Source: a candidate division WOR-3 bacterium (GTDB lineage Bacteria > Hydrothermota > Hydrothermia > Hydrothermales > Hydrothermaceae). Taken from it: DNA of 26,462 nt. Under the pieces are notes generated by a model that had not been told where the DNA came from, ran no database searches, and worked only from the letters and a program-made list of their open reading frames with translations. Location: assembly GCA_039803745.1 (NCBI GenBank), contig JBDRZD010000026.1, positions 1 through 26,462 of the forward strand. The letters run 5' to 3'. The position numbers and the translations under genes were made by a program. Every line of letters starts with the position of its first letter. Within the stretch, counting starts at the first letter, position 1. Below are positions 1-17,503 of this stretch, piece after piece.

Positions 1-1821
1 TTTTAAAAAATTAAGAATTTTATCTTTATACTTTTCTGGCTCTTTATAAATCTCTTTTTCTTTTTTATTTATAATATTTTCAATTTCATCAATTAAATTT
101 CTCAAAATTTTTCTTTTTTCAAGAAAATCTCTTTCATATTCTTCGTCATGGCATTCATTACAAAAATTTTCTTCTGGCTTTTTTATACTTTCTTTCTTTT
201 TATGGCAATCAAGACAACTTACCTCTGCTTCCTTCATAACATCAGGGGAAAAATCTTTAAATTTCCCATTATATATTTCATATTGGATTTTATGGCAGTT
301 TTCACAATTTTGAATTTTTTTATGATGGCAGGAATTGCATTCATATGAATTTTTATAAGTTAGACCGTGAATTTTCTTTGAATGGCAATCCTCACAGGAA
401 TTTATAAGAAGATGGGAATAGTGATTAAAGGTTTTATTTTTAACATTTACTTCCTGATGTTCTATACCAAAATGGCAGGAAAGACATTCAGGATCTTTTT
501 CAAAAAGCCTTTCAAGGGAAATTTTTTTTATATTTGAATCAAAAAATTTTCTTTCACCCTTTTCTAATTCTTCTTCAATTCTGTTTAAAATTAAATGGGC
601 ATATTTTATATTATGCAAGCCATTACTTTTGTCACTTTTAATAAATTCAAAATTCTGTTTTATTAAATCTGTATTTAAAGGAAGATTCAGGATATCTGAA
701 ATTTTAATAATTCTTTCTACCCTTTCATCCATCCTTTTAACTCTGTCCCTTATCCCTTTCTGCCAGATTACTGCAAGTTTATCATAACCTTTTCCATGGC
801 AATCATTACAAACCTGTGGGGTTGAAATGGTAAATATAGACTTATGTCCAAAAACCAATTTCTCCTCTTTAATCTGATGACAACCTATACATGAAACACC
901 TGATAAAAACATTGGGTCAGGAGTTACTGGCACATCTATTGCTCCTACACCTATATAAAGTCTTTCTTGAAGTGTATGTTTTCCACCATGGCATTCCTCG
1001 CATTTTGGAGAAAGGGCATAAGCCATTTCAATTTTTTTGTGTTTTATTTCACTATGACACCATTCACATTTTATCTTCTCTTTTGTTACATGCACATTAT
1101 GTAAGAATATGTGGTCTTTATATCCTATCTCTCTTTCAACATGGCATTGAGAACACTTCTCTTGAACAACTTCGCCTCTTCCTTCTGTTACATAAATATG
1201 GCATGTCCTGCACCCAATCTTTGCCTCTTCATATTTTGTATGGGAAAATTTAATACCCCTTACAAGGATAACCTCCTTTGGTGGACCATGACAACCCTCA
1301 CATCCTGCAACAGGTTCACTTGCCTCTTTACCTATAAAATGGCATATTATACATACATCTTTATTTACAGCAGTATGTTCTCCCTGAACAAGTTCTGAAT
1401 GGCAGGATTGACATGCAAGATTTACTCCCCTTATTTCTTTATCATAGTGTTTAACATGCTTGAATTTTATTCTTTTTGCAAATAAAACTTCACCTATTTC
1501 AAGTTCCTCTTTAACATGACATTTTTTACAATTTTTATCATCTATTTTTGAATGAAGCCTTACATGATACACTCCTGCAAAATATCTTATCATCTCAGCA
1601 AGCAATCTAAACTTACCTTCCATGTAACCGAAAAATCCTTTTCTATAATGACAATCTATACAATTAACATTGTTGTGGCTTGAAGAAAGCCAGTTTTCAT
1701 AATAGGATTTCATTATATGACAGGAATTACAGAAAGATGGGTTATCTGAAACTCTTATAAAAAGATAAAAGAAATACAAAATTAAAATAGTTAGTATTGG
1801 AAAAATTATTTTCTTTTTCAT
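1..1821 (-). CDS. Membrane-anchored NapC/NrfH-type multiheme cytochrome c with at least 18 CxxCH motifs; 3' end runs off the window
   Basis: Not in the ORF track. I translated it by hand from ATG 1821 (ATGA overlap with the stop at 1818); it is open for 607 codons to position 1. It begins [58 protein letters not shown] (N-terminal TM helix, CxxCHxM, WxxSxH). 18 CxxCH counted, plus a helical SNGLHNIKY segment. Collinear paralog of 5248..6930. Confidence 0.93.
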
Positions 1822-2678
1822 TCTTTTTTATTTTCCCTTTCCTTCATTATCTTCTCATATTCAAGTGGATGCTCTTTAATCATCCTTTCCTTACTTATTT
1901 TACCTGTGAAAATTGTCGGATTAAATGGAAAAACTTCTGGATTGAAATGGGCATTATACCAGTGCCATATTATTATTGCAAGGGTTGCAAGAAGTGCTTC
2001 ATCAGAATGTGCTTCCCTTGCTATATCAAGAAAAAATTTTGGAATAATTCCAAGAAAAAAATTATGTAACCACATAAGTGTTCCTGATACAATCATTATA
2101 ACCATTCCCCAGTAAACTGCCCAATAATCAAATTTTTCTATATAAGAATACCTTCCAAATTTCGGCTTTTCCTTTGTAAGACCCAAAAAATATTTTATAT
2201 TTTGAAAAAAATCAAGAAAATCTTTTTTCCTTGGCAAAAGTTCTTTAAATTCTCTTCTTCCTTCTTTTGTAAAAAGATATATTGTATGCCATATTGCAAC
2301 TAAAATTAAAAGTGCTGCACCAATTCTATGTAAAATTCTTGATACCTGTATCCCACCTGTTATTTTAAAATAAATTTCTGCCCATCCTGTTTCGTGAAAT
2401 TTTATTGGTAAACCTGTTATTATTAAAATTAAACAACCTAATGCAAGGATAAAGTGCTGTAATCTAACATTTAAACTGAATCTTATGAAATATTCCTCTT
2501 CCTCTTTCTTTATTTTTTCTCTTTCTTTTTTAATTCTCTTAATTTCCTTTTCTATCTCTTTTCTATACCTTTCTTTGATTTCCTCCTTTATTCTTTTTTT
2601 TATCTCTTCCTTTAATTCAATTCCATCCTTTTCAATTTCTTTTATTATTTCTTCATAAATTTTTTCTTCTTCTTTCAT
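1818..2678 (-). CDS. FdnI/HydC-family (CbcL-like) membrane cytochrome b with a charged N-terminal extension
   Basis: RFS..RLQH start of TM1, four TM helices, His in LQH, ILHR, IWHT, AHSDEA and WHWYNAH, plus the motif [17 protein letters not shown]. The first ~62 aa are almost entirely E/K/R/I. Confidence 0.88.
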
Positions 2679-3703
2679 TTTTTAAACTTTCTTATACCTC
2701 TTCCTGTCAAATCAAGAATTATATGAACAATGAGGCCAAAAATCACAAGAAATGTAAACCATTTAAAAAAGTTATAAACATAATAAACAATGCCTGCCTC
2801 TTTTTCTTCAGGAATTATGTGATATTTTCCCTTTGCAACATTTTGAGAAGCACCGGGATGACATTTACCACATGTTGCTGCAAGATTTTTTGGATGAATT
2901 GGTGATTTTGGGTCAGTAGAGGGAAGGATATCATGATATCCATGGCAGGAAACACAATTTGCTGCTTTAACAACACCATATTCAAGTGCAATCCCGTGAA
3001 AACTTTCTTTAAAGGCTTCAACCTGTTTTACAGGAACACCATACTTTTTCATTATTGTTATATCTGCATGACACTTTTCACATGTACCAGTCACATTCTT
3101 TGGATTCAAAGTAGAACGGGGGTCCTCTGGTGGCAAAATGTCATGCTCTTTATGGCAATCATTACAAACTGCTGTTTCTAAAACCCCTTTTAAAAGAGCT
3201 TTACCATGAATTGATTTAATATATTCTTCTTTAACAAGTTTATGACATTTACCACAGGTATTTGGTATATTTTTCTTATTTATTGTGGATAGTGAATCAC
3301 CTGGATGTCTTATTGAATGAGTTGTATGACAATCAATACAATCAGGTGCAATTTTACCTTTCTCTTTCGCTCTTCCATGGACACTCTCTTTATATTTCTC
3401 AGGCATTTCCTTAACAGGGGCACCAACTACATTTCCTGCATAATGACATTGAAGGCAATGTATCTTTTTCGGTTTCCTTAAATGGGGAATTGTTATGACA
3501 TCATAATGGCATTGAGTACATAACATATCTTTATGAACACTTTGATAATATTCAGAAGGAGAAACAAAGAGAGGTCTTTCAATTCCATCCTCAATTATCT
3601 TATAATCCTCCTTACCATGGCATAAAAAGCATCTTCTATTTTTTGTAACTATATCCTGAGAGTAGAGATTAAAAATGAAAATTAAAGTTAAAAGTTTTTT
3701 CAT
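2675..3703 (-). CDS. Nonaheme cytochrome c with signal peptide and C-terminal TM anchor (resembles the CbcL periplasmic domain)
   Basis: 9 CxxCH; three repeats of SxHG..CxxCHxxH.I..S..N..TCxKCH; C-terminal hydrophobic helix ending VHIILDL. Confidence 0.9.
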
Positions 3704-4380
3704 TCTTCCCCCTTTTTCATCTCCTCATATTCAAGAAAATGCTCCTCTTTTAACCATTCCTCAGAAACATATCCATCCCAGAAACTTAAATTTATTGGAA
3801 AATTTGAAGGTGTTAAATGGATTTCGTATATATGCCAGAAAACTATAAAGATTAAAATGAGTGTTCCTCCCCATCCATGAATTCCATATACAAGGTCAAA
3901 TAACCATTTTGGAATTAAAACTAAAAAATAGTTATGCCACCACATAACAATCCCTGTTATTATCATAAGAAAAACGAATAGGAAAAATACCCAGTATTGG
4001 AGTTTTTCTTTAAATCCATACCTTTTTATCTTTGGTTTCTCTTCTATTTTTCCAAAATTATAAAGGATGGTTTTAAAATAATTTGAGAAATCATCTTTTT
4101 CAAATAAAAAACTTTTAAACTCCTTTCTACCTTCTTTTGTAAATATTATATAGATTAAATGATATAAGGCTGTGAATATCAATAAAAAGGCTGATAGTCT
4201 GTGAAGTGCCCCCCTTGCCTCAAAACCTCCTTCAAGGAAAATCAAGAATTTTCCAAACCATGAATCAGAAAATCTTAAAGCAATCCCTGAAATTATAAGA
4301 AGAAAAACAGAAACCATTAAAAGAAAATGCTGTATTCTCCAGTTTAATGAAAATCTCAAAATGTTTCTTTTACCCTTCAT
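3700..4380 (-). CDS. FdnI/HydC-family membrane cytochrome b, paralog of 1818..2678
   Basis: RFSLNWRIQH, ALHRL, LYHL, EKLQYW, GIHG and FWHIYEIH; C-terminal WLKEEHFLEYEE matches [11 protein letters not shown] of the paralog. Confidence 0.87.
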   Translation of the reverse strand: MKGKRNILRFSLNWRIQHFLLMVSVFLLIISGIALRFSDSWFGKFLIFLEGGFEARGALHRLSAFLLIFTALYHLIYIIFTKEGRKEFKSFLFEKDDFSNYFKTILYNFGKIEEKPKIKRYGFKEKLQYWVFFLFVFLMIITGIVMWWHNYFLVLIPKWLFDLVYGIHGWGGTLILIFIVFWHIYEIHLTPSNFPINLSFWDGYVSEEWLKEEHFLEYEEMKKGEE

Positions 4381-5354
4381 TTTCTTCTCCTTCTTAAATC
4401 AAGAATTATATGAAGTAAAAACATAAAGCCTAAAAAACTTATAAAACAAATATAAAAGACCCTGACAACATAAACACCAAAAGAAACTTCCTTTTTTGCT
4501 TCAACATGGATTTTAACATCCTTTAATTTCCATTCCTTATCTTTATGGCATTTACCACAGGTAATAGTAAGATTTGCTGGATGTATTGAACTTTCAGGGT
4601 TTGAAGATGGTAAAATTTTGTGATATTCATGGCAAGAGATACAATTTGCAGTATGCAATTCACCTTTATATAAAAATATACCATGATAACTTTTTTTATA
4701 AGTTGAAAAACGTCTTGGTGGAATTCCATAAAGGGAAGTAATCCTTGTATTTTCATGACATTTTGCGCAAGTCTCAGGGATTTTTTTTGGAGAAACAGGA
4801 GATTCAGGAGATAAAGGAGAAAGTATTTTATGTTCATAATGGCAATCTATGCAGGTAGGAGCATCTTTAATCCCTTTTTTAATTCCCTCAAAATGAATAC
4901 TTCCTTTATATTCTTCTCCCTCTTTTTTATGACAGGAAGAACATTTTTCCTGCACAAGAATCTTACCACCATAAACTTTAAATGAAATTGTTTTATGCTT
5001 TCCATGGCATTCAAAACATTTTAACTTATTAAAGTGGACACTTTTCTCAAAATTCATCACAACCTCAGGATGACAGGAAGAACAAGAAGATTTTTCAATT
5101 TTTAAGGGATGAGGAACTTTTTCAAACTCGCTATGGCAATCATTACAATTTAATAAAAGGTGAGGAGAAATAGAAAGAGAATCTTTAATAAGATTTGAAT
5201 GGCACTTTAAACAATCACCGTATAAATTTAAATTAAATATAAAAAGATTAATCGTGGCAATCTTTACAAACTTTGTAATCCACCTCAATTTTTTTATGGC
5301 AATCAGAACATTTAAATTCATTTTCTTCAATATGCAATTTATGAGAAAAATCAC
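4377..5354 (-). CDS. Nonaheme cytochrome c with C-terminal TM anchor, paralog of 2675..3703; true start probably downstream of 5354 (TTG at 5288)
   Basis: 9 CxxCH, the same repeat units and the C-terminus LHIILDL. The track start overlaps the upstream gene by 107 bp, whereas TTG 5288 gives a signal-like MRWITKFVKIATINLFIFNLNLYG. Confidence 0.88.
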   Translation of the reverse strand: MIFLINCILKKMNLNVLIAIKKLRWITKFVKIATINLFIFNLNLYGDCLKCHSNLIKDSLSISPHLLLNCNDCHSEFEKVPHPLKIEKSSCSSCHPEVVMNFEKSVHFNKLKCFECHGKHKTISFKVYGGKILVQEKCSSCHKKEGEEYKGSIHFEGIKKGIKDAPTCIDCHYEHKILSPLSPESPVSPKKIPETCAKCHENTRITSLYGIPPRRFSTYKKSYHGIFLYKGELHTANCISCHEYHKILPSSNPESSIHPANLTITCGKCHKDKEWKLKDVKIHVEAKKEVSFGVYVVRVFYICFISFLGFMFLLHIILDLRRRRK

Positions 5355-6930
5355 CTATTTTTGTTTTAAGAATTTTATTATAAACATTTTTATGACAGAG
5401 AATGCAATCTTTTCTAACCTTTTCTTTGTGATGGCAGGAAGTGCAACCCTTTTCATCAAATTTCAAAACCTCACCTTTCGGTTTTTCATAATGAGGTCTA
5501 TGACATTCTGTGCAGTTTAAATTCTCTTCATCTAAATGGGTTCTATGGGAAAAACTTATATTAAAAATTAAACCCCTTTTTTCTTCAATACCCTGATGAC
5601 ATCTCATACATATTCTTCTCTCAGGTCTATATTTTATCCACGGCAATGGAAAATACTTATCTATTTTTCTCTCTTTTAAATCCTCATTTACAAATTCAAT
5701 TGCCTTTTCAAGTAAAACCTGAGAATAATCAATGTTATGAATTGCATATCCTTTTTTAACAAGTTCAAAATTAAAGAGAGCATCATTTAATTTTTGGGAA
5801 TTCTTTGGAAGAATTTTTTTTGCCTCTTCTATTATTTTTTCAGTCTTTTTTATCTTATCTTTTATACTCTCTTCCCACATTTTATAGATGTTATAATAAG
5901 AAGCACCATGACAATTCATACAGGAAAAAGCACCTGATGTTTTTATTCCATCACCTTCCATAAAATGACACCCCTCACATCTAACACCTGCTATATACAT
6001 TGCAGATGGCATTGGCGGAATTCCTTTGCCTCCTATTCCCATATAAAGGTCCTTTTGTGGAGAATGCCCTTTTAAGTGGCATGTAGAACAGGGAGTTTTT
6101 ACAACTGCTTCAATATCCCTTGGCTTTCCATGATATATCTCCTGGTGGCAGGCTATGCATTCAACTTTATGATCTGTAATATGGGTTTCATGCATATATT
6201 CAATTTCATCATATTTTTCAATTCTTTCTGGCTCATTATGACAGGAAAAACATCTTTCTTTTGGAACCTCACCATTTCCTTCAACAGAATGGGAATGACA
6301 AAAGATGCAATCCATCCTGTATCTTTCAACATCTTTATGATCAAATTCAAAACCTGCTTCAAAAATTTTTTTCTCAGGTGCTCCATGGCATAACTTACAA
6401 TCTGCTATATCCTCACCTATTCTTTCAACTTCCTTAAAGTGACATAAAAAACAGGTTGTTTCTGTAACTTTTATATGTGCTCCCTGAACAATCTGGGAAT
6501 GGCATGAAGTGCATCTTAACTTTTTCTTTCTTCTCATCTCGGTTAAATGGGGAGTATGGTCAAATAAAACATTTTTAAATAAAGTTTTGCCTGCAAGGAG
6601 CCTTTTGTCATGACACCTTAAACATGCTTCATCCTCAATTTCAGTCCATGGATTTGTTGAATATGTTCCTGTTATGTATCTTGCAACCATCGCAAGTGCC
6701 TCATATTTTTTCCTTATTTCAGAAGTAATGCCTGGTGGAATATGACATTCAACACAGGAAACTTCATTATGGGAAGATGTTTCCCAGGATTTATAATAGG
6801 GTTTCATAACATGACATATATTCCCACAGAATTTGGGATGAGAGGTAATTTGAATTAAAAGAAAAAATAAAACAACTCCTAAAACTATAACAAAAGAAGA
6901 TAATATAAAGATTATCTCTACTTTCCTCAT
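5248..6930 (-). CDS. Membrane-anchored NapC/NrfH-type 18-heme cytochrome c (17 CxxCH plus 1 CxxxCH)
   Basis: N-terminal TM helix, FCGNICHVM, SWETSSH, helical GYAIHNIDY segment, and C-terminal cytochrome c3/c7-like FSHxxH...CxxCH units. Confidence 0.92.
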   Translation of the reverse strand: MRKVEIIFILSSFVIVLGVVLFFLLIQITSHPKFCGNICHVMKPYYKSWETSSHNEVSCVECHIPPGITSEIRKKYEALAMVARYITGTYSTNPWTEIEDEACLRCHDKRLLAGKTLFKNVLFDHTPHLTEMRRKKKLRCTSCHSQIVQGAHIKVTETTCFLCHFKEVERIGEDIADCKLCHGAPEKKIFEAGFEFDHKDVERYRMDCIFCHSHSVEGNGEVPKERCFSCHNEPERIEKYDEIEYMHETHITDHKVECIACHQEIYHGKPRDIEAVVKTPCSTCHLKGHSPQKDLYMGIGGKGIPPMPSAMYIAGVRCEGCHFMEGDGIKTSGAFSCMNCHGASYYNIYKMWEESIKDKIKKTEKIIEEAKKILPKNSQKLNDALFNFELVKKGYAIHNIDYSQVLLEKAIEFVNEDLKERKIDKYFPLPWIKYRPERRICMRCHQGIEEKRGLIFNISFSHRTHLDEENLNCTECHRPHYEKPKGEVLKFDEKGCTSCHHKEKVRKDCILCHKNVYNKILKTKIGDFSHKLHIEENEFKCSDCHKKIEVDYKVCKDCHD

Positions 6931-8072
6931 CTTTTTCTAATATATATTATAAGGGAAATTGTAAATAAAATGAAAAGCCATAAAAACGGTAAAAATAATT
7001 TTCTGCTTTCAAAAAGTTTTTTTCTCCTTATCCCTTCCCTTTGGACTTCCTGTGCTATTGACTTTGATTTTATAGCAAAACTTTTTATTTCTTCCAGTTT
7101 CAGGGAATGGGAAACAGGTCCTGCTTCTAAAAGATATGTTTTTGCCTCTTCTATTCTTCCCAAAAAATCTTCTACGCTTACAGGAATTTTCTTTAAATCT
7201 TCAATTATTTCTTCTGTTTTTAATATTTCCATTTGGGTTGTTATAAATAGTGTATATATTTCTTCTGCTATTTTATAATTTTTTGAATCCTTTGAATGGC
7301 ATAAAAGGCATTTTTCTTTCCAAAGCTTGTGTGAAGCTTTTTTCACATAATGATTTTCATGGCATATCTCGCATTCTCCATAACCAAGTTCCTTCCAGAA
7401 TTCAGCATGTTTACTTTTCAAAAAATATTCCCTTGTCTTTATATGACATTTACCACAAACTTTCTCAATTTCTCCAATTCCAGCAGGTGTTGCACCATGT
7501 GTTCCATGGCAATCTTTACATGTTGGTGAATTTGTATTTCCCTCTCTTAATTTTTGAGCATGAATTCCCAAATTATATTCAAGAACAACATCAGAAGAAA
7601 TATTATATTTTTTCATCATGTTAAAATCACTATGACATACTCCGCATGTGCGGGGCAAGTTAAGAATATTTGTTCTTGAATTATTATCAAATGAACTTAA
7701 AATTTCATGATGCCCATGACAATCAGTGCATAGTGCTACTTCTTCATTTCCCCTTTTAAAGGCTTCTCCATGTTCTGAGGTATAATAAAGGATTTCCTGA
7801 TCAAAGGGAATACCATAAGATTTCATAATTTTTGGCGAGCTATGACATTTTGAACAGATTTTTATTATCTCTTTTCTTTTTGGTTTACCTATAAATCCAT
7901 CATGATGGGCTTTTTTAATATCAATAGCATTCAAGTCTCCACCGTGACAGGCATCACATTTAACTTTTTCTTTATAATGAATACTTTTTGTATATTCATT
8001 TTTGACTTCTGAATGACATATAATACATCCTTCATTTTGAGAAATAAGCATCAAAAAAATAAAAAGTTTCAT
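6927..8072 (-). CDS. Nonaheme cytochrome c with helical stalk and C-terminal TM anchor
   Basis: 9 CxxCH in the first ~260 aa, then a ~95 aa helical region and a hydrophobic tail LFLPFLWLFILFTISLIIY. Confidence 0.9.
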   Translation of the reverse strand: MKLFIFLMLISQNEGCIICHSEVKNEYTKSIHYKEKVKCDACHGGDLNAIDIKKAHHDGFIGKPKRKEIIKICSKCHSSPKIMKSYGIPFDQEILYYTSEHGEAFKRGNEEVALCTDCHGHHEILSSFDNNSRTNILNLPRTCGVCHSDFNMMKKYNISSDVVLEYNLGIHAQKLREGNTNSPTCKDCHGTHGATPAGIGEIEKVCGKCHIKTREYFLKSKHAEFWKELGYGECEICHENHYVKKASHKLWKEKCLLCHSKDSKNYKIAEEIYTLFITTQMEILKTEEIIEDLKKIPVSVEDFLGRIEEAKTYLLEAGPVSHSLKLEEIKSFAIKSKSIAQEVQREGIRRKKLFESRKLFLPFLWLFILFTISLIIYIRKR

Positions 8073-8986
8073 TGTCTATAAAAACCAAAAATTCCTGTAA
8101 TTAAAATTGTAATTAAAACTATTAAAGAAATTATTAAAGAGATTTTCCTTTTATGAAGAGGTAAAGGTTTACTTTTGTCAATCCATGGTAAGATAAAAAT
8201 TAAAAGGATGGCAAGAAGAATGAATAAACCAAAGAGTGTCTTTGGCATATAAATTTTCAAAAAATAAACTGGCAAAATAAAAAGGGGCAAATATACTTTA
8301 GGAGGAGTTTTAAAGGGATTATAAATTTCAACATGTTTAAAAGGAAAAAGAATGGAAAGAGTTAAGAGGATACCTAAAAAGATAGTGAAAATAATAAATA
8401 TATCAAAAAAATAAAAGTTATGAACATTTTCTCTTTCAAATTTAAGAAAAATTAAAATTAAAATGACTATTGATAAAAATGGAATTATAAGGGAATGAAA
8501 AATATAAAATCTTATATGAACAAACTCATTTATTAAAAAGTTTCCAAAAAAGAAAGAATAAATAAAATTTAAAATTGGAATATCTCTTATTATTTCCATA
8601 ACTCTTTCAACTTTCCAGTATAAATTATTTTCCATTGGAAGCAAAATACCTGTAAAATATTCAAAAAATAAAAATAAAAGGAAAAGAAATGTAAAAACCC
8701 ATAAAAATTTATTATTTTCATAAAGTTTATAATAAAAAATTTTAACAATTTCTAAAATGGAAAAAAACAAAAGGAAATTTGCACCCCATAAATGCATATT
8801 AAAGAAATAATATCCAAATGCCACATCCCTTATTATAAAAAGTGTGCTCTCATAACCTTTTCCCATTGAGGGTATATAATAAAATAGCATAAAAAATCCT
8901 GTTAAAGCCTCAAATAAAAAATTTATTAAAATTAAAATTTCAAGAAAATATTTTTTTAAAGGGAAAAATTTATTAAAGGATAACAT
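8069..8986 (-). CDS. Divergent cytochrome b/b6 (fused PetB+PetD type) of a Rieske/cyt b complex; only the heme bL ligands are retained
   Basis: Family landmarks LTG..L..YY.P..YES, HLWGAN, FTG.LLP, RFY.FH...IP, NP..TP and LPWID. His65 and His164 are present; the partner His positions are E79 and L178/I179. Adjacent to a Rieske gene. Confidence 0.85.
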   Translation of the reverse strand: MLSFNKFFPLKKYFLEILILINFLFEALTGFFMLFYYIPSMGKGYESTLFIIRDVAFGYYFFNMHLWGANFLLFFSILEIVKIFYYKLYENNKFLWVFTFLFLLFLFFEYFTGILLPMENNLYWKVERVMEIIRDIPILNFIYSFFFGNFLINEFVHIRFYIFHSLIIPFLSIVILILIFLKFERENVHNFYFFDIFIIFTIFLGILLTLSILFPFKHVEIYNPFKTPPKVYLPLFILPVYFLKIYMPKTLFGLFILLAILLIFILPWIDKSKPLPLHKRKISLIISLIVLITILITGIFGFYRQ

Positions 8987-9392
8987 AAAATTTATCCCCT
9001 CTTTTTTCTATTTCATATCTTTTTAATGGAAAGGAAGGAGGACCTTTTAATGGATTCCCATTTAAATCAAATAATGCACCATGGCAGGGACAATTTATCA
9101 TTCTTTCTTCTTTTTTATATTCAAGTATGCATTTCATATGGGTGCAAACTGCTGATATTGCAATGAAACCTGTTTCAGTTTTTATAAAAAATAAAGGCTC
9201 CTTTAAATGGGGGATAAACTTATATTCCCATGGCGCAAGTTCGTTTGCCCCTTTAATTTCTATTTCCTTTTCAAATTCTTCTCTCTCAATCTTTGGTAAT
9301 TTTATAAATGAAAGGATTGAACCGATAATTCCTAAAAACCATGCAAAAATTGTTCCTTTAAAAATATAATTTAAAAAATCCCTCCTTTTCAT
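8973..9392 (-). CDS. Rieske [2Fe-2S] protein (QcrA/PetC-like), Tat-anchored
   Basis: MKRRDFL Tat motif plus TM helix; box I CTHMKC, box II CPCHG, and GPP..PL. Confidence 0.93.
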   Translation of the reverse strand: MKRRDFLNYIFKGTIFAWFLGIIGSILSFIKLPKIEREEFEKEIEIKGANELAPWEYKFIPHLKEPLFFIKTETGFIAISAVCTHMKCILEYKKEERMINCPCHGALFDLNGNPLKGPPSFPLKRYEIEKRGDKFYVIL

Positions 9393-10570
9393 ACTCTCCT
9401 TTCTTTTTCATAAGGAGGTAAAAGCCATATCAAAAAAAGAAGAATTAAAAATGGTAAAAATAGTAATCCCATACTTGCATATATCCCCTCTCTTCCTATA
9501 AGCCCCAATTTATATATTGTTAAACCTCTTAAACTTTTTGAAAAAAGTTGACCTCCTATAACAACATTCCATCTTGTTGCAAAAATACCAATTAAAACCA
9601 TAACACTCACTAAAAAATATGTGAACTTCTTTGCACTATCAGATGAACCAAATATTCTTATATAACCTAAAAAAAGAATTGGTAAAATTGCTCCTATTAG
9701 TATTTGAAATATAAAAAGGGAAATAAATAGTTTTCCTTTTATAAGAATTTGAAACATATCAAAGAACTCTTCTGCTTCATAAATTCTTTGAACAAGATCA
9801 AGCATCTCAAGGGAAAAATCTATTATTATTGAATATAAAAGATATTTTGCCATTGCATCAAGACAGGGAATTGAGGGCTCTTTCCCTTTCAAATAATTCA
9901 AAACCATGTAAATGAAAATGACAAGGGCAATACCTGAAACCATTGCTGAAAAAAGGAAAATAACTGGCATTATAACACTTGACCACCAAGGATTTGCTTT
10001 AACAGAACCAAATATGAATCCAACATATCCATGCAAAAGGATTGCAGAAGGTATACCTATTACTGCAATAAATTTACTGAACCTTTTATCAAAATCTTCT
10101 ATTTCTTCATTTATCTCTTTCACACCAAGTGTCAAAATTTTATAAATAAATCCTTTTATTCCTTTATTTATTTTTGAAAATTCAATTATCTCTTTTCTAT
10201 ATTCAAGCCATATTTCTATTAATAAAATTGCCATTAAATACCATATATAAACAAATCCAAAAACTGCCATAGCAGATGAAAGATGAGGGGTTAAAAATAT
10301 CTCAAAACCCCTGAAAGGATGGGTAATATGGAAAACAAGTGGGAGCGGAGCACAAATCAAAAAAGCAAGGGCAGTTAAAAGGGAAAGCCTGTAAGTCGGT
10401 CTTACATCCCTTATTTCAAAAACTTTTTCTAAGGAAGCAAGAATGAATGCACCTGCAACAAGCCCTGTTATATATGGATAAAGAACAATTAATATACTCC
10501 ATCTTAGTTCTATTTCATTTGGATATATAAAACCCTCTATACTTCTTAAAACCTCATACAAATGTTCCAT
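9389..10570 (-). CDS. NrfD/PsrC-family membrane quinone-interacting subunit (CbcU-like)
   Basis: W..LIVLYPYITGLVAG, H..HP.R, TP..SSAM, RWNVVIGGQ; about 10 hydrophobic segments; follows an NrfC-like gene. Confidence 0.9.
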   Translation of the reverse strand: MEHLYEVLRSIEGFIYPNEIELRWSILIVLYPYITGLVAGAFILASLEKVFEIRDVRPTYRLSLLTALAFLICAPLPLVFHITHPFRGFEIFLTPHLSSAMAVFGFVYIWYLMAILLIEIWLEYRKEIIEFSKINKGIKGFIYKILTLGVKEINEEIEDFDKRFSKFIAVIGIPSAILLHGYVGFIFGSVKANPWWSSVIMPVIFLFSAMVSGIALVIFIYMVLNYLKGKEPSIPCLDAMAKYLLYSIIIDFSLEMLDLVQRIYEAEEFFDMFQILIKGKLFISLFIFQILIGAILPILFLGYIRIFGSSDSAKKFTYFLVSVMVLIGIFATRWNVVIGGQLFSKSLRGLTIYKLGLIGREGIYASMGLLFLPFLILLFLIWLLPPYEKERRV

Positions 10571-10575
10571 TTCTA

Positions 10576-11307
10576 TTATCTTACCTCCATATCCATATCC
10601 TTATAATAAACTTTTGGATGGGTTCTCAAATGGGGTTTTAATACCTGAAGTGGATAACTTTTTAAAAATTTATAAACAGGACTATCAGGATCATCTATCT
10701 TACCAAAAATTCTTGCATTTTGTGGGCACACAAGAACACAAACAGGTAAAAGCCCCTTTTTTATTCTATGATAACAGAATGTGCATTTATCAGGTGTTTT
10801 TGTTTCTGGATGAAAATACCTTGCACCATATGGACATGCCTGAATACAATAACCACAACCTATACAATATTTCTTATCAACAAGAACAACACCATCATCT
10901 GTTTCATAAGTTGCCCCTACAGGACAAACTTGAACACATGGGGCTTCTTCACATTGATTACAGAGTTTTGGAACAAAAAAACTCTTTGCTATCTTTTTTG
11001 GAGGATTAATCTTTTTAAATCCATTAAATCCGCCATCAGGTGATTCAACATAAACCTCACCATCCTCAAAGATAATATATCTTTCTATCCATGTCCTAAA
11101 ATAAAATGGATACTTTGGAACATTATTTTCCTCTTTGCAAGCCCTTACACACTCTCCACATCCAATACATTTACTTATATCAATTACCATTCCAAATTTA
11201 TTTTTACCATATCTAAAAGTTTGAACAATAAAATTTAAAAGTTCATTTTTAAAAAAGGGAGTTAAAATAAAAAACTTTAATTTATTTATAAAATCTCTTC
11301 TTGTCAT
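10576..11307 (-). CDS. NrfC/PsrB-family 4x[4Fe-4S] protein (CbcT-like), Tat signal
   Basis: MTRRDF; Cys groups CIGCGECVRAC, CNQCEEAPCVQVCP, CIGCGYCIQACP and CTFC...CVLVCP. Confidence 0.94.
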   Translation of the reverse strand: MTRRDFINKLKFFILTPFFKNELLNFIVQTFRYGKNKFGMVIDISKCIGCGECVRACKEENNVPKYPFYFRTWIERYIIFEDGEVYVESPDGGFNGFKKINPPKKIAKSFFVPKLCNQCEEAPCVQVCPVGATYETDDGVVLVDKKYCIGCGYCIQACPYGARYFHPETKTPDKCTFCYHRIKKGLLPVCVLVCPQNARIFGKIDDPDSPVYKFLKSYPLQVLKPHLRTHPKVYYKDMDMEVR

Positions 11308-11774
11308 TTTATAGAAGGATTATGAGGTATATGGCATTCAATACATTCTTCATCGGGATTATGTTCTTTCTCGTTAACCTGTGGAAAAGATGAAGGTCTT
11401 GATTCAATTTCAAAATGGCAAATACCACAAGAATTTCTTTTCATCTCTTTTAAAGGTTTATTTTCATCAGGATTTTCTATGTGGGCTGAAAGTGCCCCAT
11501 GACATACCTGACAATTTAAACTCTTGTGTGAATAAGAAATAACTTTTTTATACTCTTCTTCATGACAACTTTCACATTCCTTTATATCAGCATATTTTGT
11601 AGGCAAATTTATATTATCAGCAATTGAATCAGCCCTGTAATGCCCAAATTTTCCAAAACTCTTTGGAATCAAAAATGGTCTTAATATTATAAAAATTATC
11701 AAAATTCCAAAATAAATTCCAAAAAGCCTTTTTATATGAGAATACTTAGAGATTTCCTTTTTCCCCTCTTTCAT
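11304..11774 (-). CDS. Membrane-anchored tetraheme cytochrome c (CbcS-like)
   Basis: N-terminal TM helix, PKSFGKFGHYRA, 4 CxxCH (CESCH, CQVCH, CGICH, CIECH); directly upstream of the NrfC/NrfD pair. Confidence 0.88.
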   Translation of the reverse strand: MKEGKKEISKYSHIKRLFGIYFGILIIFIILRPFLIPKSFGKFGHYRADSIADNINLPTKYADIKECESCHEEEYKKVISYSHKSLNCQVCHGALSAHIENPDENKPLKEMKRNSCGICHFEIESRPSSFPQVNEKEHNPDEECIECHIPHNPSIK

Positions 11775-13952: not shown

Positions 13953-14462
13953 TTATTTTTCTTTTGGAACTGGATGCTTTATTTTCTCATAAAATTCTTC
14001 AAACTTGAATTCCTTATATGTGGGGCTATTTTCATTATGGCACTCTATGCAATTCTTTTCTGTAGGTCTTATAAGACCATAATCTTCTGGTTTTGCCTCA
14101 CCACTATAAATTTTCTTCATTACACTCATTGCCTTATATTCAGAACCCGGTCCATGACAATCTTCACAACCTATTCCATTTTCATTATCCTTTCCATTAT
14201 GGCAAGAAAGACATTTTTCAGATTTCTGTGGATCTTCTATTCCCATTTTCTTTGCAATTTCTTTTGATTTTTCAGATGCGAGAGTTTCAAATGCCTTTGA
14301 ATGGTTTGATTTTTCCCATATTTCCCATTGGCTTCCCTTCTTTTCACCCTTGTGGCATACTTTACATTTTTCAGACCCTACATACTCAAACTTCTTTTCC
14401 TCTTTTTTCTCCTGTGCCATACAGAATGTTATTCCTATTACAAGTATAAGTAATTTTTTCAT
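13953..14462 (-). CDS. Soluble periplasmic tetraheme cytochrome c (c554/c552-like)
   Basis: Sec signal, YVGSEKCKVCH, WEKSNHSKAF, 4 CxxCH including GCEDCHGPGS; AGGAGG RBS at 14467-14472. Confidence 0.9.
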   Translation of the reverse strand: MKKLLILVIGITFCMAQEKKEEKKFEYVGSEKCKVCHKGEKKGSQWEIWEKSNHSKAFETLASEKSKEIAKKMGIEDPQKSEKCLSCHNGKDNENGIGCEDCHGPGSEYKAMSVMKKIYSGEAKPEDYGLIRPTEKNCIECHNENSPTYKEFKFEEFYEKIKHPVPKEK

Positions 14463-14474
14463 ATAACCTCCTTT

Positions 14475-15626
14475 TTAAAAACAAAAAAATTTTAAAGTTT
14501 TTAAAAATAAAAAGTCAAACAATCTATTTTTTATGATTAAAAAAATTCTAACTGGATAATAAAGAAAAAAAAGGGGCTCGGGAAGTAAAATAAAATTCAA
14601 AACATTTTCATCAGGATTTAAAAGGGAAAGTGTATGATATATTTTCTGAGGGAATGACTCAATAAAAATTAATGGTAACAAATCCTTTTTAAATCCGTAA
14701 GCCTCTTTTTCTTTTAAAACAAAATCTTTTAAAAAAATTGGTAAATTTTTGAATTTTAAAAAACTTGGTAAATCCGTTTCAAAAATAAAATTTGATAAAG
14801 TTAAACTAAGTTTTACAATTTTTAAAATGTGAAGTATTTTAGAAATTTCATAAACTTTATAAAAATCAATCTCTTTTTTAAATTTCAAAATGAATTTATG
14901 AATATCAAAAAGAAATTTTAAAAGACTGTATTTATGTAAAAATGAATGGATTGAAAGAAGAATTATTTCCCACTCCTTTGAAAAGATATAAATTTTTAAA
15001 CCATTTAAATCAAGATTTTCAAATTCAAAAAATTTCTCAAAATTTTTAATCTTTTTAAATCTTTTTGGAAGAATATCAAAATGAATTTCAACTAAAAAAT
15101 TTTCTTTATAGAGCCTGTATTCATTATATAATCTGAAATGGATTTTTTTTAAAAAGTTTTCCCTTTTTTCATCCAAATCAAAATAAAAACCTTCATTTTT
15201 TAAAATATCAATTGCTTTAAATAAATCCCTTTCAAAAACAAATATATCAATATCATTAAAACTCCTTGAAAATAAATCTTCATAAACTCTTTCAGAAAGC
15301 AAAAAACCCCTTAGAGGGATTGCAATTATATTATTTTCCATTAATTTTTTTAATATATAAATTGTTCTTTCCTTTAAAAATAAAACTCTATCTTTATTTT
15401 TTTCATAAAGAATTTCAAGAATTTTAAAAAAACTTTCAGGAATTAATTCTTTCCTATTTAAAAAAAATTTATAAAAAATTGGATAAATATCTTCACTTAT
15501 CAAAATATTTAAAAATTTTTCCCAATCAATTCTTCCATTTTTTTCAATTTTTTCTTTTCTTAAAATCTCAGTTATTAAACTTTTCTCATAGGAGAAATTA
15601 AAATCTTTGAGTGATCTCAAGCCCAT
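14475..15626 (-). CDS. Nucleotidyltransferase family protein (NTP_transf_5-like, PqqD/RiPP-associated)
   Basis: PLRG...Y....RSFNDIDIFV (LKG/DxD signature), VEIH, IH..H...LKFLFDI; context with PqqD and kinase. Confidence 0.82.
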   Translation of the reverse strand: MGLRSLKDFNFSYEKSLITEILRKEKIEKNGRIDWEKFLNILISEDIYPIFYKFFLNRKELIPESFFKILEILYEKNKDRVLFLKERTIYILKKLMENNIIAIPLRGFLLSERVYEDLFSRSFNDIDIFVFERDLFKAIDILKNEGFYFDLDEKRENFLKKIHFRLYNEYRLYKENFLVEIHFDILPKRFKKIKNFEKFFEFENLDLNGLKIYIFSKEWEIILLSIHSFLHKYSLLKFLFDIHKFILKFKKEIDFYKVYEISKILHILKIVKLSLTLSNFIFETDLPSFLKFKNLPIFLKDFVLKEKEAYGFKKDLLPLIFIESFPQKIYHTLSLLNPDENVLNFILLPEPLFFLYYPVRIFLIIKNRLFDFLFLKTLKFFCF

Positions 15627-16347
15627 TTTGATACAAAAATTCTATATCTTTCCAGAAAATTTTATAAAAAGGCACTTCCTCTACAATTCTCACTAAATCC
15701 CTTAATCCTTTATTTTTTATATATTCCTTTCTATTTATACAAATTGCTGAAAGGTATAAAAAGGCTTTCTTTTTATCCATTAATGTTATCTTATTGATTT
15801 TTGAAGGTATTGGAAATATAAAACATTTTAAAGGGAAAAAATTATCTTTTATTATTTTTTTTGGAAAAACAAAAAATTCTTCAAAATTTTCATCTTCAAT
15901 TGTTTCTTCATCATCCACATATTTTTTAAAATCCCTATGAAGTTTTATTGGCTGGGGATAGGGAAATGAAAAAAATTTATTTTTTATAATAAGAGGTGAA
16001 ATATCATCACTTAAATAAAATAAATTTTTTGAAATTAAAAATGCTAATAGACTTTTACCAACCTTTGTCCTTCCCCCTATTAAAAAAGCCTCTTTACCAT
16101 TTGAAATACTTGATGCATGGAATATTAAAAAATCGTTTATTTTTGGAAATATTTTTTCTCTTATATAAAAATCAAAATAAAGTAAGAGAAAAAAAGGAGA
16201 TTTTTTATAATTTAAATCAAATTTAAAATCACTTTTACCTTTAAAATCTTTAAAGTATTTATAATATTTTTTAAAAATAAAAACTTTATCTCCTTCTTTA
16301 TCTTGAATTTCAATCCTTTTTAATAATATTTTTTTTAATGAATTCAT
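15598..16347 (-). CDS. HPr kinase-related P-loop kinase
   Basis: FHASS, Walker A GRTKVGKS, YLSDD; lacks the N-terminal domain of true HprK. Confidence 0.82.
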   Translation of the reverse strand: MNSLKKILLKRIEIQDKEGDKVFIFKKYYKYFKDFKGKSDFKFDLNYKKSPFFLLLYFDFYIREKIFPKINDFLIFHASSISNGKEAFLIGGRTKVGKSLLAFLISKNLFYLSDDISPLIIKNKFFSFPYPQPIKLHRDFKKYVDDEETIEDENFEEFFVFPKKIIKDNFFPLKCFIFPIPSKINKITLMDKKKAFLYLSAICINRKEYIKNKGLRDLVRIVEEVPFYKIFWKDIEFLYQNGLEITQRF

Positions 16348-16591
16348 TAATTATCTTTATAGTATCCTGTGAAATTTTTTCCTTTTCAACATTTAATGTT
16401 TCAGAAATTATATCAATCATCTCCTTTATTGTAAAATTTCCATCACACATATTAAGTATTACACTTGCACTATTATTTAATAAAAAAACCTCATCATTTA
16501 ATGGATCATAGACCACGCTTCCATCCTCTATATTTTCTATTTTTAAATCTTCTCTTTTTTGGGGCTTAAAATCTAAAGAAATTTCTTTCAA
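16310..16591 (-). CDS. PqqD family protein / stand-alone RiPP recognition element
   Basis: 93 aa; P......IEDGSVVYDP....FLLNNSASVILNMCDG..TI.E.....D....I.EF....II. Confidence 0.9.
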   Translation of the reverse strand: MKEISLDFKPQKREDLKIENIEDGSVVYDPLNDEVFLLNNSASVILNMCDGNFTIKEMIDIISETLNVEKEKISQDTIKIINEFIKKNIIKKD

Positions 16592-16776
16592 AATTTATCT
16601 TCACCTTCTTCATTTTCTTCAAAAAATTTTTTCTCTTTTCCCCCAAATGGTGTTCCTGCCCATAGTTTTTTTTGAGTAAAGGCAATTATAACAGGAACTG
16701 ACCATATACTCATTTTAAGAAGTTTTCTTCTTATTTCATCTATTTTTTCTTCCTTCTTTTTAATTTCTTCTCTCAT
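16588..16776 (-). CDS. Putative RiPP-like precursor peptide with a twin-arginine-like leader
   Basis: AAGGAG RBS at 16782-16787 and ATGA overlap with pqqD. Sequence IRRKLLK-MSIWSVPVIIAF-TQKKLWA|GTPFGG followed by an acidic tail. Confidence 0.72.
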   Translation of the reverse strand: MREEIKKKEEKIDEIRRKLLKMSIWSVPVIIAFTQKKLWAGTPFGGKEKKFFEENEEGEDKF

Positions 16777-16807
16777 ATTTTCTCCTTTGTAAAAAATTTA
16801 TATTTTA

Positions 16808-16836
16808 ATTATACACTAAAAAAAATTAAATTTCAA
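16808..16836 (-). promoter_or_regulatory. Sigma70-type promoter for the peptide/PqqD/kinase/NTase cassette
   Basis: Minus strand TTGAAA (16836-16831), N17, TATAAT (16813-16808). The -35 box lies inside the 3' end of the HAD gene. Confidence 0.65.
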
Positions 16837-17503
16837 TCAAAACAGAGACTATTTTTCTATAATCTTTAAAATTTTCAAAAACAAAATCTGGTGAAAATTT
16901 TTCAAGTTCTTCCTTTTTAAAATTTCCTGTTGCCATCCCAATGGAGATAAATCCTGTTTTTTTTGCAGCAATAATATCTAATGGTGTATCCCCTATTACA
17001 ATAACTTTTTCAATTTCGCATTTTTTATATTTTTCTGCCCTTTCTTTTGCAATTTTAAGGATTTCCTCTCTTTTTTCTGAATCAGATGCAAATGCTCCTA
17101 TTTCAAAAAGATCCCATAACCCTGATGGTAAAAGTTTTATTTTTGCCCCTTCATATATATTACCTGTTGCAATTCCAACTATGAATTCTTTTAATTTTTT
17201 TAATTCAATTATCAATTCCCTTACACCTTCCATAACTCTATAATCTTTATTCCATACAGTTTCCTTTAAATAGTAAAGATAATTTTCAAAGACCTCTTCT
17301 ATTTCCTTTTCATCTGGCTCTTTATTTAAATTTTTTTTAAATATTTCTTTAATTATCTGAGGATCTGTCATTCCATCAGGATTAATACCCTTTAATGGCT
17401 CAGAAATATTATATAATTTTTCAAAAGTTTTTTTAAGCGCACGGGAACCCGCATAACCTGACCATATTAAAGTTCCATCTATATCAAATAAAACAAGTTT
17501 CAT
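16826..17503 (-). CDS. HAD-superfamily hydrolase (phosphoglycolate phosphatase-like)
   Basis: LFDIDGTL, ATGN, IGDTPLD. Confidence 0.92.
   Translation of the reverse strand: MKLVLFDIDGTLIWSGYAGSRALKKTFEKLYNISEPLKGINPDGMTDPQIIKEIFKKNLNKEPDEKEIEEVFENYLYYLKETVWNKDYRVMEGVRELIIELKKLKEFIVGIATGNIYEGAKIKLLPSGLWDLFEIGAFASDSEKREEILKIAKERAEKYKKCEIEKVIVIGDTPLDIIAAKKTGFISIGMATGNFKKEELEKFSPDFVFENFKDYRKIVSVLIEI

Follow-up and report, generated by a model that had tools for sequence, protein, structure and literature searches.

The window considered here is a stretch of 26,462 nucleotides, contig C26 (JBDRZD010000026.1, positions 1 to 26,462) of the assembly GCA_039803745.1, from a candidate division WOR-3 bacterium whose genome comprises 1.67 Mb in 100 contigs, is 93.5% complete and has a G+C content of 29.6%. 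On its minus strand lies a cassette of about 2.3 kb made of four head-to-tail open reading frames (ORFs), which overlap by 4, 38, and 29 nt. In the order of reading, these encode a precursor-like peptide of 62 aa with an ATG start (16588–16776), a PqqD-like protein of 93 aa with a TTG start that resembles a discrete RRE, the recognition element of RiPPs, or ribosomally made peptides with post-translational modifications (16310–16591), a kinase candidate of 249 aa with an HprK/PEPCK-fold P-loop (15598–16347), and a nucleotidyltransferase of 383 aa from the family NTP_transf_5 (PF14907; 14475–15626). The overlaps are real, because orthologues keep the N-termini that create them. A Pfam scan of 28 ORFs of the window revealed no protein like asparagine synthase or transglutaminase, no radical SAM protein and no ABC exporter. 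A preliminary description of this DNA had already reported the four overlapping genes, their promoter and the lack of a cyclase, a transglutaminase-like protease, a radical SAM enzyme and a transporter; these observations are confirmed, whereas the interpretation given with them, a new class of nucleotidylated linear peptides, is only partly supported.

The promoter-like site, TTGAAA-N17-TATAAT (16808–16836, minus strand; 11/12 matches), has its −35 box within the last codons of the upstream HAD hydrolase gene. Sites of this kind are not enriched in the AT-rich window (21 found, whereas shuffled sequences give an expectation of 23.6), and the RRE gene itself contains one that scores equally well. 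It is conservation across loci, and not the site score in DNA of 21–29% G+C, that supports the predicted promoter: the TTGAAA box and a −10-like hexamer occupy the same position in 4/4 related loci. The upstream gene is a different one in one of the four loci, and both upstream genes end in …EI-stop across the TTGAAA box. One relative has an additional ORF of 69 aa, which separates the HAD hydrolase gene from the peptide gene (L044 4709–4915; L009 2769–2978); it ends in …EFEI-stop, so that the box is preserved. A Shine–Dalgarno sequence, AAGGAG (16782–16787, minus strand), stands 5 nt before the ATG of the peptide gene. GGAG-type sites precede the orthologues in 3/4 loci, and none is evident before the start taken for L008.

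Linear polyphosphorylated peptides (LPP), defined in Bacillota as the products of a pathway with no cyclase (Popov et al., Nat Commun, May 2026; PMC13381572), provide the frame for what follows. Their clusters (lppA-K-B-S-D-N, in Paenibacillus alginolyticus and others) encode a precursor, the HprK-like LppK, the RRE LppB, the SipW-type peptidase LppS, the MsbA-like exporter LppD, and the NTP-transferase LppN, NTP standing for nucleoside triphosphate. The leader has the consensus YxxPxVLxHQxIxFETxxS with Tyr at −16, both Tyr-16 and Pro-13 are needed for RRE binding, and LppS, aided by LppB, cuts after Thr-1; paeninodin-type lasso leaders have WxxP instead (PMC13381572). According to the authors, LPPs and paeninodins are restricted to Bacillota, with clusters of both kinds in capsule loci (PMC13381572).

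The Precursor-Like Peptide

The 62-aa product has a charged N-terminus and an acidic tail that ends in Phe. It is single-copy in the genome, has no match in Pfam (nor has the P-loop kinase), and its profile found no match in the PDB. An orthologue precedes the trio of RRE, kinase, and nucleotidyltransferase genes in 4/4 related loci, with the same gene order in three genomes of the same family (G001, G003, and G004). With the peptide alignment as query, species-representative genomes yielded two true loci, both with the full cassette, in an uncultured metagenome-assembled genome (MAG) and in the MAG of Candidatus Hydrothermus pacificus. A third match, which falls within a 177-aa membrane protein in a Bryobacteraceae MAG, was discarded as due to chance. 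In a collection of 5.8 billion proteins, the peptide is represented by nine protein clusters.

In six pairwise comparisons, nonsynonymous divergence of the peptide gene (pN) was 0.08–0.17 and synonymous divergence (pS) 0.28–0.87. The three enzymes had pN values of 0.19–0.33 in the five pairs other than that of the window with L007, and the peptide was lower in all five; in the window–L007 comparison, which is the closest pair, the RRE (pN 0.05) was below the peptide (pN 0.08). Judged by these divergences, the peptide is a real gene under strong purifying selection. That it is better conserved than the enzymes in 5/6 pairs argues for a housekeeping or structural role, possibly as a cell-envelope or metal-binding polyanion, and not for an arms-race antibiotic.

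The alignment of ten peptides shows where the invariant residues lie. R16, R17, L19, K21, W25, P28, F33, K37, W39, A40, G41, T42, and the C-terminal Phe are invariant in 10/10, and insertions and substitutions start right after T42. All the motifs concerned are on the minus strand: RRKLLK in the leader (16714–16731), WSVPVI within a hydrophobic stretch (16687–16704), a signal-peptidase-type site L-W-A|G at the junction A40|G41 (16657–16665), and the codon of Thr42 (16651–16653). Within WSVPVI, W25-x-x-P28-x-I/L30 is invariant or nearly so in all ten peptides and fits the RRE-docking motif [Y/W]xxPx[L/V/I/F/A]. The composite RR…[W/Y]xxP motif, sought in all fetched loci, occurs in the peptide orthologues and otherwise only in three spurious out-of-frame matches.

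Thr42 is the sole Ser, Thr, or Tyr in the last 22 residues and the only invariant hydroxyl residue in the peptide's C-terminal part. If W25 is set at −16, the position of the Tyr in LppA, then A40 is the last leader residue, G41 the first of the core, and Thr42 residue +2; under the spacing of paeninodin, in which W is at −15, Thr42 would become +3. The core start that had been proposed in the preliminary description, the L-W-A|G site, and the drop in conservation thus all coincide at A40|G41. The earlier choices of the small ORF as substrate and of Thr42 as acceptor gain support as well, the former from the conservation and the invariant W25xxP28, the latter from its invariance and from its distance to the Trp, 17 residues vs. 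18 residues to the phosphorylated Ser3 in LppA. On the sequences compared, phosphorylation of Thr42 would be the best-supported chemical inference.

The RRE and Its Predicted Binding to the Peptide

The PqqD-like protein is recognized by the Pfam PqqD model (E 1.1e-9), and its NCBIfam match to PqqD_rel_X (TIGR04353) reaches 22.2 of 35 bits. Its RRE profile matches are the lasso B1 proteins TfuB1 (2.2e-7) and TbiB1 (4.6e-7), LppB (9x8z_B, 1.3e-4), PqqD proteins, and PbaB1 (0.022); by profile E-value, it is nearer to the lasso B1 proteins than to LppB. The predicted complex between this RRE and the peptide had a score of 0.58 vs. 0.01 for the best control, with at least 93% of contacts agreeing between runs and a partner pLDDT of at least 61. 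The mark applied to this score is reached by 116/157 solved complexes and by 2/215 mismatched pairs, and scores of 0.60 or less comprise 18/157 solved complexes plus both mismatches that passed. The model thus lends weak support to the binding of the leader by the RRE that had been supposed in the preliminary description. It shows likeness at most, because RRE–leader complexes have already been solved.

The Kinase

The AlphaFold2 model of the kinase candidate has a mean pLDDT of 94.2 and a pTM of 0.90. With Foldseek, it matched ATP-dependent phosphoenolpyruvate carboxykinases (PEPCK; E 5e-6, TMq 0.57–0.63) and HPr kinases (3tqf_B, E 2.1e-5; also 1ko7, 1kkl, and 2qmh), and its predicted fold is that of the PEPCK/HprK P-loop proteins; the sequence itself gave no PDB match at E up to 10. 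The expected motifs are present as His77, a Walker A motif G92-x4-G97-K98-S99, and Asp114-Asp115. Across 27 relatives, His77, Gly97, and Lys98 do not vary, nor do Gly92 and Asp115 in the six that are closer.

These residues can be related to those of characterized peptide kinases. In BsfK, mutagenesis established the importance of H148, G163, K169, S170, D186, and D187 (PMC10368454), and H77, G92, K98, S99, D114, and D115 have the same spacing within one residue. BsfK phosphorylates Ser3 of its core peptide, is strongly stimulated by BsfB1, and accepts the S3T substitution (PMC10368454), while LppK adds up to four phosphates to core Ser3 (PMC13381572). The likeness of the present enzyme to LppK is one of fold and catalytic residues.

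The Nucleotidyltransferase and the Nature of the Final Decoration

The last gene of the cassette encodes a protein with a clear Pfam match to PF14907 (E 9.8e-35), a family to which LppN and the pseudomycoidin enzyme PsmN presumably also belong. The literature found on PF14907 amounts to one paper, on phosphonate clusters. Gly107, Arg121, Asp125-x-Asp127, Asp134, and His182 are kept in all eight aligned relatives. The structural model has a pLDDT of 75.7, with residues 307–383 below 50; the alignment behind it is shallow (8 rows), because low-complexity AT-rich words saturated the index of the word-index search, which gave six relatives among 8000 scored candidates. Neither Foldseek with the model (at E ≤0.001) nor the sequence against the PDB (at E up to 10) gave any match. 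With VIA-align against 48,161 chains, the best match was MenT1 (Z 11.6, rmsd 3.0, 174 aligned), followed by the NTase-like protein 5uvd (Z 9.8), ANT(2'') (Z 9.5), LnuA (Z 9.0), and TM1012 and TglT (Z 8.8 each). A likeness to ANT(2'') has also been found for PsmN (Zyubko et al., PMC6993621).

Residues ~300–383 (14475–14720) form a hydrophobic C-terminal extension, modeled as one long low-confidence helix, which is absent from the 281–288-aa nucleotidyltransferases of two more distant genomes (G013 and G019). This extension could be a membrane or partner-binding tail.

The preliminary description proposed that the kinase and the nucleotidyltransferase together make a nucleotidylated linear peptide, through phospho-Thr42 and the addition of a nucleoside monophosphate (NMP), as a class of its own. 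The enzyme does have the fold of a nucleotidyltransferase, and its G/DxD/H residues are intact; the solved proteins nearest to it in fold (MenT1, ANT(2''), and LnuA) all transfer NMP to a hydroxyl, and there is no glycosyltransferase in the cassette. The attack of a phosphate on the alpha-phosphate of an NTP is, in addition, ordinary chemistry for sugar-1-phosphate nucleotidyltransferases. However, the addition of NMP finds no support beyond the fold. In pseudomycoidin biosynthesis, PsmK phosphorylates the C-terminal Ser and PsmN, which has a DxD motif and is the only relative tested in such a setting, is needed for the phosphate to receive one or two hexoses (+162/+324 Da), not an NMP (PMC6993621; review PMC8498205). 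As for its other counterparts, LppN is reported to give nothing detectable in the heterologous host (PMC13381572) and BsfN to be uncharacterized (PMC10368454), and the claim to a separate class has been overtaken by the publication of the LPP family, with the same enzyme set, in May 2026 (PMC13381572). We consider nucleotidylation a minority possibility.

A Proposed Minimal Cassette of the LPP Kind

The reading that we prefer, with a probability of roughly 0.55, is that these four genes constitute a minimal lasso-free peptide phosphorylation cassette of the LPP kind, in which Thr42 is phosphorylated and then decorated. The 62-aa product would be the substrate, its WxxPx[I/L] motif docking as a beta strand on the discrete PqqD-type RRE. 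The RRE would present the peptide to the HprK-like kinase, which would phosphorylate Thr42 (core position +2 or +3) once or more, and the PF14907 enzyme would add a group to the phosphate, a sugar by precedent or alternatively a nucleotide. Export and leader removal would most likely be left to the twin-arginine translocation (Tat) or Sec pathway of the cell and to signal peptidase I, and the released peptide would be acidic, about 22 residues long, and would bear a phosphate-based decoration. The central idea of the preliminary description, a lasso-free cassette with the RRE, the HprK-like kinase, and the PF14907 enzyme as its only dedicated enzymes, is retained in this proposal.

The cassette and the LPP clusters have in common a leader with a [Y/W]xxPx[V/I/L] motif, a discrete RRE that is lasso-like, a kinase of the HprK-like type, a presumably comparable NTP-transferase still to be characterized, an acceptor hydroxyl (here a predicted one) just past the leader/core junction, and the lack of any macrolactam cyclase; the LPP leader peptidase is a homologue of signal peptidase I (PMC13381572), and it is the general signal peptidase I that is proposed to act here. 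In contrast to LPP clusters, the cassette has no LppS-like peptidase of the signal peptidase I type (nor does the 93.5%-complete genome) and no MsbA-like exporter. Its leader has Trp in place of Tyr and an added RRxLxK, and the acceptor would be Thr at +2, not Ser at +3. By eye, the full LPP leader consensus is absent, and agreement extends only to the docking motif and the hydroxyl spacing. Furthermore, the tail is conserved, the host is of the WOR-3/Hydrothermus type, and the locus is outside a capsule region. In the literature searched, we found no description of an LPP-like cassette outside Bacillota that is minimal, lacks a peptidase and an exporter of its own, and has a twin-arginine-like leader. 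The cassette is best read as an LPP-like variant outside Bacillota that lacks a dedicated peptidase and exporter, and not as a new class. As such, it would widen the LPP range beyond this phylum, and, at ~2.3 kb and with one presumed acceptor residue, it is small enough to be useful for learning how PF14907 enzymes act on a peptidyl phosphate.

Several observations weigh against this proposal. The kinase is very divergent: it scores 18.8 bits with HprK_rel_A (TIGR04352), for which the cut-off is 200, and a full HMMER pass over 1.84 billion representatives gave 65 relatives at E ≤1e-3, only two of which were below 1e-30. The presumed acceptor is at +2 and not at +3, and LppK is reported to have rejected the S3T substitution (PMC13381572). 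The peptide tail is conserved and not hypervariable, there is no LPP consensus beyond [Y/W]xxPx[V/I], and the hydrophobic stretch of the leader could be only the RRE-binding strand. In the trios of G013 and G019, there is no small ORF, so an adjacent peptide is not always needed; the association of small ORFs with homologous trios that was anticipated in the preliminary description therefore holds for the 4/4 related loci and fails for these two. The 3′ end of the operon is open, since a cytochrome c554-like gene begins 12 nt past the nucleotidyltransferase stop with no terminator-like site between them in a promoter/terminator scan, and co-transcription may extend to the cytochrome c and binding-protein genes downstream. 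Finally, among the sequencing runs that carry positions 14300–17000 of the window, none is recorded as RNA.

Two further systems invite comparison. The phosphorylated lasso peptide pathways (paeninodin and pseudomycoidin, with PadeK, PsmK, and PsmN, and Bsf) also combine an HprK-like kinase, an RRE, and an enzyme of nucleotidyltransferase fold (PMC6993621, PMC8498205, PMC10368454), and the catalytic H/G/K/S/D/D residues of their kinases are kept here. They differ in having a cyclase, a B2 protease, and an ABC exporter, all absent from the present cassette, and in their C-terminal Ser, in place of which 10/10 of the peptides end in Phe; the product here should be linear. The HPr-rel-A system (TIGR04352, TIGR04353, and TIGR04355), the label considered in the preliminary description, likewise pairs a PqqD-family chaperone with an HprK-like protein and provides the best curated model for the kinase, HprK_rel_A being the best model for 29/30 of the nearest kinase representatives, all under the cut-off. 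However, all scores at this locus are far below the cut-offs, including those given above for the kinase and the PqqD-like protein. HprK_rel_B reaches only 21.1 of 200 bits, on the ordinary HprK of the genome, there is no second kinase, and the label is not supported. No mention of HPr-rel-A, HprK-related, TIGR04352, or TIGR04353 was found in the literature searched, and the main texts of the RRE-Finder paper and of the 2025 paper on RRE definition contain no kinase, nucleotidyltransferase, or HPr.

Relatives of the Enzyme Trio in the Phylum

The kinase profile was used to scan 272 genomes of the phylum, and the 30 best loci were inspected by their ORFs, with family scans of selected proteins from L014/L040, L041, L015, L029, L032, L035, L036, and L042. 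A kinase orthologue is present in 4/5 genomes of the family, the miss (G002) being 75% complete, and in 0/6 sister-family genomes, which gave only weak matches to ordinary HPr kinases of 320–340 aa. Across the phylum, HprK-like proteins of 220–270 aa occur in several settings. In G013 and G019, the order is a BNR-repeat protein, a 201-aa Poly_export/SLBB (Wza-like) protein, a PqqD protein of 80 aa, the kinase, and the PF14907 enzyme of 281–288 aa, and G025 is similar as far as its contig reaches; in G017 and G039, a Wza-like protein, PqqD, and the kinase have no adjacent nucleotidyltransferase. Elsewhere, the kinase is found alone, in one family after a 311-aa ORF that by eye is fumarylacetoacetase-like and in another genus after a 271-aa ORF that by eye is a ROK-type kinase. 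A motif scan of the flanks of these distant kinase loci found no composite RR…[W/Y]xxP motif. The enzyme trio is older and wider than this peptide, and it may serve another substrate in some lineages.

This distribution bears on a second alternative. The substrate of the trio would then be a glycan of the cell surface or an exported protein of larger size, and the 62-aa product a small membrane or secreted protein that is co-transcribed with the trio but unrelated to it. It would fit the trios of G013 and G019, which follow the Poly_export/SLBB protein, and likewise the PqqD–kinase pairs of G017 and G039. One kinase representative (P0038) is fused to a GT2 glycosyltransferase, and LPP and paeninodin clusters are reported from capsule loci (PMC13381572). 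On the other hand, the peptide has the invariant [W]xxPx[I/L] docking motif of lasso and LPP leaders, it overlaps the RRE start by 4 nt, it accompanies the trio in every genome that has the kinase of this clade, and no glycan genes are found in the window. This alternative is, in our view, unlikely.

The possibility that the peptide is a fragment of the Wza-like gene of the distant trios was rejected, as neither RR nor [W/Y]xxP is found there by eye or by motif scan. The BNR operons (L040, G013:C1, 8071–12337; L041, G019:C21, 7738–12020) encode a BNR-repeat protein of ~595 aa with a weak T9SS-tail match. In G255, an HprK-like protein of ~320 aa directly follows a radical SAM/SPASM maturase, a SynChlorMet-like pairing (L035, G255:C28, 1129–3061), and three further copies bring such kinase paralogues to four.

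A Signal-Like Leader

The proposal of an LPP-like cassette leaves export and cleavage to be accounted for, and here the leader itself may be informative. Its invariant R16-R17-x-L19-[L/I]-K21 resembles the twin-arginine consensus RRxFLK, and it is followed by a 12-residue uncharged hydrophobic stretch (M22–F33), a basic c-region (QKK), and L-W-A|G, with a small residue at −1 and an aliphatic one at −3. This twin-arginine or signal-peptide look was not remarked on in the preliminary description. The genome encodes TatC, TatA, and one bacterial-type signal peptidase I (LepB), and the Rieske protein of the window starts with MKRRDFLN. In a crude screen of the ORFs of at least 40 aa, for an RR motif in the first 35 residues followed by 12 uncharged residues of mean hydropathy >1.2, 3/6216 ORFs were retained, namely TatC, a 120-aa protein, and this peptide; the screen misses the Rieske protein and hence is no predictor. 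Of the ESM Atlas clusters, the nearest three are small proteins without a name (0.92–0.93), and the four nearest named ones (0.84–0.87) are all Tat-signal proteins: a Rieske Tat-signal domain, the methylamine dehydrogenase light chain, the Fe-hydrogenase small subunit, and PF10518. We take these as leads only. The Tat-signal profiles matched neither the peptides nor the Rieske control with its RRDFL, which makes that test uninformative.

No SipW-type peptidase was detected with TIGR02228 (0 matches) in the 93.5%-complete genome, and no MsbA-like exporter of the LppD type was found among the 28 window ORFs scanned, the whole genome not having been searched for it. Because the cassette is without LppS and LppD and the genome without a SipW-type peptidase, export by Tat or Sec with cleavage by LepB would be the economical way to complete the pathway, though we hold this step only tentatively. 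In a possible, still doubtful extension of this idea, one leader would have two readers: a twin-arginine (or Sec) signal would have a hydrophobic core that doubles as the WxxP docking strand, the RRE would, like a Tat proofreading chaperone, hold the signal in the cytoplasm until Thr42 is decorated, after which export would fall to the general Tat pathway and trimming of the peptide to signal peptidase I. If true, housekeeping secretion would take over the export step as well as leader removal for a RiPP pathway, and the LPP kind would reach beyond Bacillota into deep-branching thermophiles. The cassette makes testable whether a RiPP leader can double as a general secretion signal.

Proteins of the TorD/DmsD type are proofreading chaperones of Tat substrates. 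The leader shares with Tat signals an RRxFLK-like motif, a short and weakly hydrophobic core, a basic c-region, and an A-x-A-type site, and here too a small cytoplasmic protein would bind the signal before export; it differs in that the binding protein is a PqqD-fold RRE, not of TorD fold, and in that the cargo is only ~22 residues long. Taken further, the PqqD-like protein could be nothing but a holding chaperone for a Tat or Sec signal peptide, and the small protein exported or membrane-tethered without covalent modification by the two enzymes. The signal-like leader, the presence of the Tat machinery, and the better conservation of the peptide relative to the enzymes in 5/6 pairs would agree with this. 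However, no catalytic residue has been lost from the kinase or the nucleotidyltransferase, both of which are translationally coupled to the RRE, and in the characterized relatives the RRE serves modification (PMC10368454, PMC13381572), which makes it very unlikely that the chaperone role is the whole story.

Lasso Machinery

The assignment of the cassette to the LPP kind also depends on the absence of lasso genes elsewhere in the genome. PF00733 occurs in two places, in MnmA and in an ORF at a contig end that starts with MCGIAG. The latter scores 389 bits with TIGR01536 (cut-off 267) and 242 of 525 bits with the lasso cyclase model, and is thus a true AsnB; its gene adjoins chain-length-determinant-type genes in a polysaccharide-type locus. 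Next to the AsnB gene, several stretches of contig C17 (22131–28907) within this locus read as N. The B2 leader protease model NF033537 has no match in the 93.5%-complete genome, and a Transglut_core3 (PF13471) match, considered as a B2 candidate, was rejected because it lies in a 496-aa membrane protein. The trans-acting cyclase that the preliminary description had allowed for was thus sought in the genome, with AsnB and MnmA as the only matches.

That the cassette is the tailoring half of a split lasso pathway, with its cyclase and B2 protease elsewhere, could be argued from the ~7% of the genome unseen in an assembly of 100 contigs, from the occurrence in the same class of a genuine lasso cluster that includes an HprK-like kinase (G016), and from Gly45/Gly46 and Glu53/Glu54 of the tail at ring-compatible spacing, but with no B2 match, with a Gln-hydrolysing AsnB with N-terminal Cys as the only strong Asn-synthase match, with no Thr at −2, and with the same four genes recurring alone in four genomes, this reading is scarcely tenable. 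The lasso cluster of G016 (L036, G016:C15, 2–2727) encodes a PqqD protein (lasso_PqqD_Bac, 63.9 bits), a B2 protein (84.5 bits, over the cut-off), a 303-aa HprK-like kinase, and an Asn-synthase-like protein.

Genomic Setting

The three enzyme genes have a G+C content of 20–23%, compared with 28.6% for the peptide gene, 28.5% for the window, and 26–33% for most flanking genes. The low values may reflect a foreign origin or weak codon selection. Beyond the cassette, positions 1–11774 (minus strand) hold a run of respiratory genes, with at least five multihaem cytochromes c (MtrC/MtrF-like, c3/c7, and NapC/NirT-type), two cytochrome b561-type proteins, a Rieske/cytochrome b pair, NrfD, and a 4Fe-4S protein, and this run looks like an extracellular or periplasmic electron-transfer module. 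DNA near-identical to positions 14300–17000 of the window, with at least half of the sampled words present, was found in hot springs metagenomes, in nine runs from three studies.

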